A stretch of DNA of 64,000 nt from Clostridia bacterium. GTDB lineage: Bacteria; Bacillota; Clostridia; UMGS1883. A program made the position numbers and the translations under genes. A model generated the notes under the pieces. It ran no database searches. It was not told the DNA's origin and saw nothing but the letters and a program-made list of their open reading frames with translations. Below, piece after piece: positions 49,005 to 50,681 of this stretch (its first letter is position 1; each line of letters begins with the position of its first letter). Location of the stretch: positions 3,864-67,863 of the forward strand of contig JAZQCM010000042.1 of NCBI GenBank assembly GCA_045546275.1, read 5' to 3'.

Positions 49005-50681
49005 ATGCCAAAGTGCATGATATCCAAAAAAAGTGATTGTAAAAATTGCTATAAATGTATACGTAATTGCCCGATTAAAGCAATTCGTTTTTCGGGCAAC
49101 CAGGCACAGATAATCGGAAACGAGTGCATTCTTTGCGGTCGTTGCTACACAGTTTGCCCCCAGAATGCAAAAGAGGTTGTAAGTGAGGTTGAAAAGGCAA
49201 AGGTGCTTATTGCATCCGGCGATGAGGTTTATGTAAGCCTGGCGCCCTCTTTTATTACAAAGTTTGACAATGCGGGCATTGAGTCAATGGAAGAAGCCCT
49301 TAAAAAGCTTGGCTTTACAGGCTGTGAGGAAACTGCAATAGGTGCCACAATTGTAAAAAATGAATACGAAAAAATGCTTTCGACAGGCGATAGAAATATT
49401 GTTATATCCTCCTGTTGTCACAGCATAAATCTTCTTATACAGAAGTATTTTCCTAAGGCGCTTACATATCTTGCAGACGTGTTAAGCCCCATGCTGGCAC
49501 ACGGTGCCGATATTAAAAAACGCCACGAAAACGCAAAGGTTGTATTTGTTGGTCCTTGTATTGCAAAAAAGGATGAAGCTGAACATTACGAAGGCTTTGT
49601 AGATGCAGTGCTTACCTTTGAAGAATTGGAAAACTGGTTTAAAGAAGAAGGTATTGTGCCCGACAAGAATGTTATATCCTGTGAAAAATCAAGAGCAAGG
49701 TTTTTCCCTGTTACAGGCGGTATTCTTAAAACAATGGCGTGCAATGAAGAAAAGTACGAATACATTGCCCTTGACGGCATTGAAAACTGCATGGAAGTAC
49801 TCCGCGAAATTGAAGAAGGCAGAATAAATAACTGCTTTATTGAAATGTCGGCTTGTGTAGGTGGCTGTGTGAACGGTCCTGCTATGGGTAAAAAGGAGTA
49901 TTCGCCTGTTATCGATTTTATAGCGGTGAAAAATTTTGCAGGCGCAGAAGACTATGATGTTAATCAGCCTGACAGCTTCGATTTAAGAAAAATTTTCGAT
50001 TTTATAGAAAGAAGGTCACAAGAGCCTAATGATACTGAGGTTGAGGCTGTCCTTCGTCAAATGGGCAAGTTCAAGTTGGGCGATGAATTGAACTGCGGAC
50101 TTTGCGGCTACAACACCTGCCGTGACAAGGCAAAGGCTATTTGTCAGGGCAAGGCGGAAATAAGCATGTGCCTTCCGTTTTTGAAGGATAAAGCCGAAAG
50201 CTTTTCAGACACAATTGTTAAAAACACACCCAATGGTCTTATTGCACTTAATGAAAGCTTAGAGGTACAGCAAATAAACGAAGCTGCACAAAAAATGATG
50301 AATTTAAGATATGCATCGGATATTTTGGGTGAGCCTGTGGTGAGAATTCTTGACCCTAAGGACTTTGTTGATGTTTTAAATTCAGGCAGAGATATACGAA
50401 ACAAGAGAGTTTATCTTGCCGAGTACAAACGCTATGCTGACGAAACTATTGTGTATGACAGAGATTCAAGAATGTTAGTTGCAATACTTCGTGACGTTAC
50501 CGATGAAGAAACCGAAAGGGAAAAGAAAGAGTCTATCAGCCGACAGACCGTAGAGGTTGCAGATAAGGTTGTTGAAAAGCAGATGAGAATTGTTCAGGAA
50601 ATCGCATCGCTCCTTGGTGAAACAGCCGCCGAAACAAAAATTGCACTGTCAAAGTTAAAGGAGTCGATTGCTGATGAATGA
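49005..50681 (+). CDS. hydS: Putative sensory [FeFe]-hydrogenase (group C, HydS/HfsB-like). Domain order: a 2x[4Fe-4S] ferredoxin domain, the H-cluster domain, a Cys4 cluster and a PAS domain.
   Basis: [12 protein letters not shown] and [12 protein letters not shown]. H-cluster motifs L1 SSCCHS (canonical TSCCP), L2 [9 protein letters not shown], L3 [13 protein letters not shown]. C-terminal [20 protein letters not shown]...C. PAS-like C-terminus ([27 protein letters not shown]). Confidence 0.85.
   Translation: [558 protein letters not shown]

Follow-up and report, generated by a model that had tools for sequence, protein, structure and literature searches.

SSCCH, a conserved L1 motif of phosphatase-linked putative H2-sensing [FeFe]-hydrogenases in a subclade of gut and rumen Clostridia

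Genomes and transcriptomes from the rumen and the gut are rich in group C hydrogenases, to which a part in balancing H2 against ethanol and acetate production has been ascribed (PMC6776011, PMC5707799). In Thermoanaerobacterium saccharolyticum and T. thermosaccharolyticum, the hfsABCD operon encodes a small protein, a PAS-containing [FeFe]-hydrogenase, a serine phosphatase, and a ferredoxin-linked hydrogenase; the regulatory role of HfsB was deduced from genetics, namely from the phenotype of an hfsB deletion (PMC5707799, PMC11837493). HydS of Ruminococcus albus, which combines an H-cluster domain with a PAS domain, shares its transcript with genes for a Ser/Thr phosphatase and a ferredoxin-only hydrogenase and has been proposed to be an H2 sensor (PMC6776011; for the HydDB definition of group C3, see PMC5037454). 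The only PAS-type sensor to have been characterised spectroscopically is HydS of Thermotoga maritima (TmHydS; group C, M2f architecture) (PMC10055695). HydS of Thermoanaerobacter mathranii (TamHydS; group D, M2e) is a putative sensor of low activity (PMC8163306, PMC13104023). In both of these characterised sensors, the proton-relay cysteine is replaced by alanine, A131 in TmHydS and A137 in TamHydS (PMC10055695, PMC10407848).

The locus described here lies within a window of 64,000 nucleotides, which is the whole stretch of DNA that was analysed, and all of the features mentioned below are on the forward (+) strand. Its genes for a small [2Fe-2S] protein, HydS, a PP2C phosphatase, and a group B1 hydrogenase follow the order hfsA-hfsB-hfsC-hfsD, which is the same four-gene order as in the two Thermoanaerobacterium species. 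The likeness to HfsB is one of operon and domain architecture; the present operon belongs to uncultured gut/rumen Clostridia and is preceded by a kinase-like gene. The R. albus cluster described in the literature also holds adhE and Rex, whereas neither gene is found within the 64-kb window. The first gene (48742..48987) encodes an HfsA-like, thioredoxin-like [2Fe-2S] protein of 81 amino acids, which matches PF01257 over the cut-off (1.1e-8) as well as a NuoE/HoxE C-terminal-like profile; it is located immediately 5' of the HydS gene in 72 of 77 related loci. The HfsC-like product (50668..51846) is a PP2C/SpoIIE Ser/Thr phosphatase (PF07228, 4.2e-13; PDB matches to SpoIIE/RsbX-type phosphatases) in which the C-terminal domain, about 170 amino acids long, is uncharacterised. 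Its true start is probably the ATG at 50674, with an 8-nt overlap with the HydS stop, and hfsC directly follows the HydS gene in all related loci (76/76). Further downstream, the HfsD/HydA2-like monomeric group B1 [FeFe]-hydrogenase (51859..53301; hfsD is downstream of the HydS gene in 54 of 65 related loci) scores 542 bits with TIGR04105 (cut-off 450), contains the motifs TTSCCPAF, GPC, and EGMAC, and conserves C299, E279, E282, S319, and M497. This agrees with its earlier description as a catalytic-type neighbour with TSCCPAF.

The HydS ORF (49005..50681) begins with ATG, is preceded by an AGGGAAG-type ribosome-binding site, and encodes a protein of 558 amino acids. Pfam matches comprise two Fer4 domains, Fe_hyd_lg_C (PF02906, 3.1e-52), PF04060, and PAS, and the domains are arranged in the order 2x[4Fe-4S], H-domain, Cx2Cx4Cx16C, and PAS. 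The AlphaFold2 (AF2) model has a mean pLDDT of 89.1, and its best Foldseek matches are [FeFe]-hydrogenases. The N-terminal ferredoxin-like domain (49017..49169; residues 5-55, Fer4 families) contains two CxxCxxCxxxC motifs (C12, C15, C18, C22 and C41, C44, C47, C51), and in 40 diverse relatives all eight cysteines are invariant or nearly so. The preliminary description also placed a Cx2Cx4Cx16C motif next to the PAS domain, as is indeed the case: C364, C367, C372, and C389 (50094..50171; PF04060, 1.9e-9), which are invariant in the same 40 relatives, form an RnfB-N-terminal-like region that has a fifth, non-invariant cysteine (C380). The PAS domain (residues about 402-497; 50208..50495) scores 21.9 bits in Pfam, just below the 22.6-bit cut-off (E = 1.8e-4); however, AF2 predicts a five-stranded PAS-like alpha/beta fold for residues 411-497 (two strands, helices, and three strands; pLDDT about 90), and a precomputed PF00989 match is present in many homologues. 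No structure of a PAS-type sensor hydrogenase was found in the PDB copies searched, either by sequence or by fold.

This architecture, together with the substitutions M353G and M497S described below, supports a HydS-type hydrogenase with a putative sensory function. It can be assigned to HydDB group C3 (M2f), an assignment made by architecture and operon and not by clustering with C3 reference sequences. Within HydS/HfsB, the known family of phosphatase-linked putative hydrogen sensors from gut/rumen Clostridia, it is unexceptional.

The H-domain differs from that of catalytic enzymes in the L1 motif, which reads SSCCHS (residues 135-140; 49407..49424). The codon for His139 is CAC at positions 49419-49421, as seen in the translation of 49398-49433. 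When aligned with solved hydrogenases by HMMER, SSCCHS falls on TSCCPS of 8a6t_A and on TSCCPG of DdH. MAFFT alignment with CpI, the reference sequence of which was checked and is identical to PDB 1c4a/3c8y, pairs C137 with C299, C138 with C300, and H139 with P301; three independent alignments share this placement of L1. Thus, the motif is non-canonical, with proline replaced by histidine, as had been proposed. Misassignment is excluded because the CC dipeptide occurs only once in the whole 558-residue protein and TSCCP is present nowhere else in it. The proposal that the L1 change alters a proton-transfer residue does not hold: C137 corresponds to the proton-relay cysteine C299 and is retained, C138 is a ligand of [4Fe-4S]H, and P301 lies outside the known proton pathway. 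No hydrogenase paper on an SSCCH-type L1 variant was found among the 15 best-ranked of 102 literature matches, and no paper on G302S in hydrogenases was found in the literature search.

All four cysteine ligands of the H-cluster (C300, C355, C499, and C503 in CpI) are present in HydS as C138, C185, C284, and C288, and K188 (K358), P162, F234 (F417), and E191 are also kept. The earlier statement that L2 and L3 are retained is correct for the cysteine ligands and K358 only. The L2 motif (49545..49580; G183, C185, K188, D190) has GPC for MPC, i.e., M353G, and the L3 motif (49836..49880; S282, C284, C288) has EMSAC for ExMAC, i.e., M497S; these are the substitutions that are treated in the literature as sensory hallmarks. 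Nar1/HydA-like proteins that lack the [2Fe] site exist. That the motif is misassigned, or that the protein is degenerate, hydrogenase-like, and devoid of an H-cluster, is nevertheless extremely improbable here, since nothing besides the non-canonical L1 speaks for it and it is rejected by the four H-cluster cysteines together with K188, P162, F234, and E191, by the single CC dipeptide, and by the agreement of the three alignments.

In HydS, the residue at the S319 position is alanine (A157), and the equivalents of E279 and E282 depend on the aligner: N119 and E122 with HMMER, Y121 and M124 with MAFFT. No alignment places glutamate at the E279 position of HydS, asparagine or tyrosine being found there instead. 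Group A is defined by TSCCPxW, MPCxxK, ExMACxxGC, and C299/E279/S319/E282/R286, whereas HydS has SSCCHSI, GPC, and EMSAC; moreover, it scores 75.9 bits with TIGR02512 versus a cut-off of 406. The top score of the H-domain is with the group B1 model, at 197 bits, which is under the cut-off. A trait of group C/M2f hydrogenases, namely that M353, M497, and the canonical proton pathway are not conserved, is seen in HydS at G183, S282, and A157. In HydDB group C, M353 is replaced by glycine in 51% of sequences, and C299 is cysteine in only 17% (PMC10055695); among 150 diverse representatives of the family, 51 have cysteine at position 299.

TmHydS has the same domain order, and its G177 and S267 correspond to G183 and S282 (PMC10055695). 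It differs in having A131 at the C299 position and Y223 at the F417 position (PMC10055695), where the present protein has Cys137 and Phe234, in addition to histidine at position 301. The TmHydS residue signature (A131, G177, Y223, S267) has no exact match among the 150 representatives, and this comparison is made by published residues. As the relay cysteine, F417, and K358 are kept, the clade might turn over H2 better than TmHydS. TamHydS shares the N-terminal 2x[4Fe-4S] domain and the Cx2Cx4Cx16C motif; however, it has no PAS domain, carries A137, serine for M353, and leucine for M497, and uses its own E252/E289 proton pathway. In this group D enzyme, 1 atm of H2 does not reduce the C-terminal cluster, which contradicts the idea of a redox relay for TamHydS (PMC13104023); a relay of redox state from the cluster to the PAS domain, as suggested in the earlier description, is hypothetical in group C. 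Group B enzymes (ToHydA and CpIII; TSCCCP) resemble HydS in having glycine at the M353 position, no P294, and isoleucine at the F296 position, but they are catalytic, retain both M497 and the proline that follows the cysteine pair, and have neither a PAS module nor a C-terminal cluster module.

The replacement of proline by histidine is not specific to this gene but is the norm across a large gut/rumen clade. His301 (CpI numbering) is present in all 120 of the closest homologues (>=70% identity). Of 80 species-level genomes with an overall identity of 55-77%, 78 have it (97.5%); these are the 80 best loci from a scan that yielded at least 541 related genomes. One of the His-type relatives is Butyrivibrio sp. 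MC2013. Among the 78 loci with histidine, the codon is CAT in 46 and CAC in 32. Since the residue is kept in 78 of 80 genomes at this level of divergence and both histidine codons are used, its occurrence is not due to chance. In the 150 diverse representatives, position 301 is proline in 120 and histidine in 14, and the 14 are those nearest the query. SSCCH is thus a conserved lineage signature of a subclade of gut/rumen Clostridia and not a one-off oddity. Three features covary with histidine when kinship is ignored: D190 in L2 (93% vs 12%), K118 (86% vs 9%), and Cys299, which occurs in 10 of the 14 His301 representatives versus 39 of the 120 Pro301 ones (Fisher p = 0.007).

It is conceivable, though less probable, that His139 is neutral or merely structural, for example a helix N-terminal cap that was fixed once in a gut/rumen ancestor. 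The restriction of histidine to the subclade nearest the query would fit such a lineage marker, as would the Pro-type relatives, in which neither the operon nor the order of domains differs (with Rex upstream in one of them). Serine, alanine, tyrosine, and glutamine are also seen at position 301 in the family, and the position therefore tolerates change. However, a neutral residue would be hard to reconcile with 97.5% conservation despite CAT/CAC turnover at 55-77% identity, with a location immediately after a cluster-ligating cysteine, and with the covariation of D190 and K118 (kinship ignored).

The same covariation, which involves two polar residues, has led us to consider that His139, Asp190, and Lys118 could form a clade-specific proton exit from Cys137 that replaces the missing E279/S319 leg. 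We regard this as unlikely. C299 is kept while S319 is alanine and E279 is aligned with asparagine or tyrosine, Cys299 is enriched among His301 proteins (kinship again ignored), and alternative proton pathways have been documented in sensory enzymes (PMC10407848). Yet Cys299 is absent from four of the 14 His301 representatives, in which it is replaced by serine, alanine, or glutamine, and a canonical-like route could still run through E120 and E/D122, which are conserved close to the E279/E282 region.

In CbA5H and ToHydA, the latter a group B enzyme, Cys-to-Fe capping is controlled by the flexibility of the TSCC(C)P loop; both are without P294 and have isoleucine or leucine at the F296 position (10.1101/2025.03.17.643706). 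HydS likewise has I134 at the F296 position and lacks both a P294 equivalent and P301. By analogy, loss of Pro301 might render the loop mobile, so that Cys137 could reversibly cap the distal Fe, either as Hinact-like protection against O2 or as a switch read by the PAS domain. As an argument from analogy, and given that P294 is also absent from Pro-type relatives, this seems more doubtful still. It is similarly unlikely, with regard to signalling as a whole, that Cys137 works with the clade-specific polar set of His139, Asp190, and Lys118 (which lies near the E279 position) as a new proton exit or as an Fe-capping switch, so that the redox state of the H-cluster becomes a movement of the loop or helix that is read by the PAS domain and helical tail and by the PP2C partner. 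If true, the mechanism of this clade would set it apart from TmHydS and TamHydS, the Ala299-type sensors that have been studied to date.

We are fairly confident that the gene encodes a phosphatase-linked, putatively H2-sensing hydrogenase in which SSCCH is a subclade signature and the histidine most likely acts in second-sphere tuning. AF2 predicts a strand at residues 132-134, followed by the SSCC loop and a helix that begins at His139. His139 would thus be the first residue of the helix after the cluster-ligating cysteine, in place of Pro301. Without Pro301, the N-terminus of a helix pointing at [4Fe-4S]H would gain a backbone NH and an imidazole, and the loop that bears Cys137 would be loosened. 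This would shift the potential of the cluster, affect proton exit from Cys137, or do both; such second-sphere tuning is, in our inference, the most likely role of His139. By comparison with the family, the H-cluster of HydS is expected to react with H2. Through the C-terminal cluster, the PAS domain, and the helical module, its redox or conformational state would then reach HfsC, the PP2C phosphatase that is co-translated with HydS. The output of HfsC would in turn control fermentation genes as well as the group B1 ferredoxin hydrogenase encoded next to it. The helical module would correspond to the conserved C-terminal tail (residues 499-558; 50499..50678), for which AF2 predicts long helices at 499-537 and 540-557 with lower pLDDT. 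In the 40 diverse relatives, A534 and G538 are invariant and many positions are conserved at >=90%; the tail also contains [QH]EIA[SG]LLGE, the peptide picked as the most conserved of the family.

The HydS/HfsB family and its operon type are already known, while none of the papers found mentions the SSCCH signature; for this window, the histidine adds a detail at the level of annotation to a system that is known. The His301 clade, however, spans dozens of species-level genomes and keeps the relay cysteine, unlike both of the Ala-type biochemical models. Given its breadth, it would therefore be a reasonable source of a third model enzyme for the second-sphere residues that make a hydrogenase a sensor.

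With regard to expression and signal output, the hfs promoter region (48490-48741) contains no match to the Rex operator pattern TTGTTAANNNNTTAACAA, even when up to three mismatches are allowed, and the frequency of this pattern in the entire window (17 observed versus 12.7 expected) is at chance level. The gene upstream of this region (47719..48489) encodes a kinase-like protein with an APH/RIO1/Bud32-type fold (Pfam APH, 1.8e-11; RIO1, 2.8e-9; NCBIfam Bud32-like matches), which might be the kinase that partners the phosphatase. Of the related loci, 71 extend far enough for this gene to be seen, and in 41 of them a homologue is located upstream of hfsA; such a kinase would often join HfsC in the signal output.

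HydS (49005-50681, + strand; 558 amino acids, with an ATG preceded by a plausible ribosome-binding site), a gene that had been correctly identified in the preliminary description, carries SSCCHS at residues 135-140 (nt 49407-49424, read from the translation of 49398-49433), in which His139 is encoded by CAC (49419-49421). When HydS was compared with solved [FeFe]-hydrogenases using HMMER, SSCCHS paired with TSCCPS of T. kivui HydA (8a6t_A) and with TSCCPG of a Desulfovibrio enzyme. CpI, identical to PDB 1c4a/3c8y across residues 1-574, served as the position ruler. In the MAFFT alignment, C299, C300, P301, and W303 of CpI (L1) correspond to C137, C138, H139, and I141 of HydS; S319 and Q325, between L1 and L2, to A157 and M163; M353, C355, and K358 (L2) to G183, C185, and K188; F417 to F234; and M497, C499, and C503 (L3) to S282, C284, and C288. 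TSCCP is absent from the rest of the protein, and the CC dipeptide occurs once. Thus, the non-canonical L1 motif is borne out, as both methods place SSCCHS on the TSCCP of known enzymes, and misassignment is excluded by the single CC dipeptide and the lack of a second TSCCP. L2 and L3, described as retained, do keep their ligands but have lost both methionines (M353=G183, M497=S282). The functional reading, which took altered L1 residues as a sensory hallmark, has to be revised: HydS still has the relay Cys, L2 and L3 are where the sensory hallmarks lie, and His behaves as a clade signature.

In particular, [ST]SCCHS is present in 120/120 of the closest database homologues (at least 70% identity). 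Among the 80 best loci at species level in GTDB genomes (55-77% identity), 78 carry His and 76 keep all of Cys-Cys-His; the residue is encoded by CAT in 46, CAC in 32, CCG in 1, and GCG in 1, and this mixture of CAT and CAC points to purifying selection at the protein level. In a wider sample of 150 representatives of 50%-identity clusters (32-69% identity to HydS), CpI position 301 is occupied by Pro in 120, His in 14, Ser in 5, and a few others, position 299 by Cys (51), Ala (44), or Ser (35), position 353 by Gly in 133, and position 497 by Ser (44), Asn (40), Leu (27), or Met (17). The representatives nearest to HydS are the His-bearing ones. Moreover, two Pro-type relatives (SSCCPT and TTACPA) have the same HfsA-HydS-PP2C operon, flanked in the SSCCPT relative by Rex on the upstream side and by a group B hydrogenase on the other. 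Because His301 is near-universal in close relatives and rare in the wider family, and because Pro-types share the operon, these sequences identify it as a subclade signature within the phosphatase-linked family. A quirk of one gene is ruled out by the 120 close homologues and 78 species loci, and a marker of a different system by the Pro-type relatives in the same operon. Variation at positions 299, 353, and 497 is treated in the literature (PMC10055695, PMC8163306); no mention of variation at position 301 was found in the hydrogenase literature searched, no hydrogenase paper was among the 15 best-ranked of 102 matches to the motif strings, and within this literature the P301H variant is undescribed at the residue level.

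The HydS sequence has intact H-cluster ligands and K358, and retains the relay Cys, which is Ala in the characterised sensors TmHydS (A131) and TamHydS (A137) (PMC10055695, PMC10407848). The canonical proton pathway is otherwise altered: S319 is Ala in 80/80 relatives, and the E279 counterpart is Asn119 (HMMER) or Tyr121 (MAFFT), depending on the aligner. A carboxylate may still sit near the canonical site, given the conserved E120, Y121, and E/D122 in this region. In raw counts that ignore shared ancestry, His-type and Pro-type representatives differ most at D190 (CpI F360, in L2; 93% vs 12%) and K118 (CpI I276; 86% vs 9%), and also at L143, S140, and N142, and Cys299 is commoner in the His-type (10/14 vs 39/120; Fisher p = 0.007). 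The AF2 model of HydS, built with 40 diverse relatives as input, is confident (mean pLDDT 89.1) and places around L1 a strand (132-134), the SSCC loop, and a helix starting exactly at His139; residue 301 would thus be the first in a helix that points its N-terminus at the [4Fe-4S]H ligand Cys. Replacing Pro with His would bring a backbone NH and an imidazole to the helix start and take a rigid residue out of the Cys137 loop. His139 could act by tuning the potential of the cubane, the role suggested for S267 of TmHydS (PMC10055695), and could also give protons a way out from Cys137. By analogy with CbA5H and ToHydA, loss of Pro301 could also raise mobility of the Cys137 loop; in those enzymes, a mobile loop allows the distal Fe to be capped by the relay Cys (10.1101/2025.03.17.643706). 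As in them, the F296 position of HydS is Ile, and P294 is absent. P301H is a candidate for a functional change.

By Pfam, residues 5-55 of HydS hold two 4Fe-4S ferredoxin motifs, 74-292 the hydrogenase H-domain (E = 3e-52), 362-391 the PF04060 Fe-S motif, and 402-459 a PAS fold scoring 21.9 bits, slightly below the 22.6 cut-off; the model shows a PAS-like fold of five strands across 411-497, followed by two long helices (499-557). This architecture is M2f, that of group C putative sensors, which combines N-terminal clusters, the H-domain, Cx2Cx4Cx16C, and PAS (PMC8163306, PMC13104023). Foldseek matched HydS with group A enzymes only, including CbA5H, and neither sequence nor Foldseek searches found a sensory-type hydrogenase structure in the PDB copy searched. 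The Cx2Cx4Cx16C motif (50094-50171) is real and invariant; a fifth Cys inside it (C380) is common in close homologues, a few of which have Tyr or Ala instead. Redox relay from this cluster to PAS is an old proposal, the sole test of which, in the group D enzyme, showed no reduction of the cluster under 1 atm H2 and hardly any effect on catalysis when it was changed (PMC13104023). No stretch of the family is better conserved than the tail beyond PAS (residues 499-558; 50499-50678), which is predicted with low pLDDT, has A534 and G538 invariant, and supplied the chosen family pattern, [QH]EIA[SG]LLGE. It may serve as a helix for dimerisation or output that touches the PP2C partner; no discussion of it was found in the hydrogenase literature searched.

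The locus is a regulatory hydrogenase cluster of the usual hfsABCD/HydS type. Its order matches that of Thermoanaerobacterium hfsABCD, namely small protein, PAS hydrogenase, Ser phosphatase, and ferredoxin-linked hydrogenase (PMC5707799, PMC11837493), and R. albus HydS has this arrangement around it too (PMC6776011); HydDB classes such hydrogenases as group C3, labelled 'phosphatase-linked (putative)', and group B, labelled 'colonic-type' (PMC5037454). With each neighbour scored only in loci that extend far enough to include it, hfsA recurs in 72/77, hfsC in 76/76, hfsD in 54/65, and the upstream kinase in 41/71. The 80 loci derive mostly from gut or rumen Clostridia MAGs, and also from Butyrivibrio sp. 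MC2013 and Flexilinea flocculi. At 55-69% identity, His-type hfs operons also turn up in bins assigned to Methanocorpusculum, Atopobiaceae, and Bacteroides, apparently on mis-binned contigs, and in the isolate Flexilinea flocculi (Chloroflexota), whose copy suggests transfer across phyla.

Upstream of HydS lie an APH/RIO1/Bud32-like small kinase (47719-48489), which could be the partner of the PP2C phosphatase, such a pair having been proposed for R. albus, and an 81-aa thioredoxin-like [2Fe-2S] protein (48742-48987). The PP2C/SpoIIE phosphatase HfsC (50668-51846) overlaps the HydS stop. Its listed TTG start (50668) is probably wrong and the true start ATG 50674, because relatives align from residue 3; the overlap would then be 8 nt (translational coupling). 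HfsC surpasses the sensor in conservation (up to 90% vs 77% identity in the same genomes), and its ~170-aa C-terminal region (residues about 225-392) had no match in Pfam, NCBIfam, or PDB sequences. The downstream 480-aa hydrogenase (51859-53301) matches TIGR04105, 'monomeric [FeFe] hydrogenase, B1' (542 bits; cut-off 450), and keeps C299, E279, E282, S319, and M497. Its M353 counterpart is nevertheless Gly as well (IGPCTAKK), so GPC alone is not a sensory marker. An FMN-dependent NADPH reductase/flavodoxin-like gene (53337-53957, - strand) lies convergent to hfsD, and of the relatives only the closest keeps it beside the operon. The window has neither a Rex gene nor a Rex box adjoining the operon; in the Pro-type relatives L081 (839-1477) and L082 (211-942), a Rex-like gene (Put_DNA-bind_N + CoA_binding) immediately precedes hfsA.
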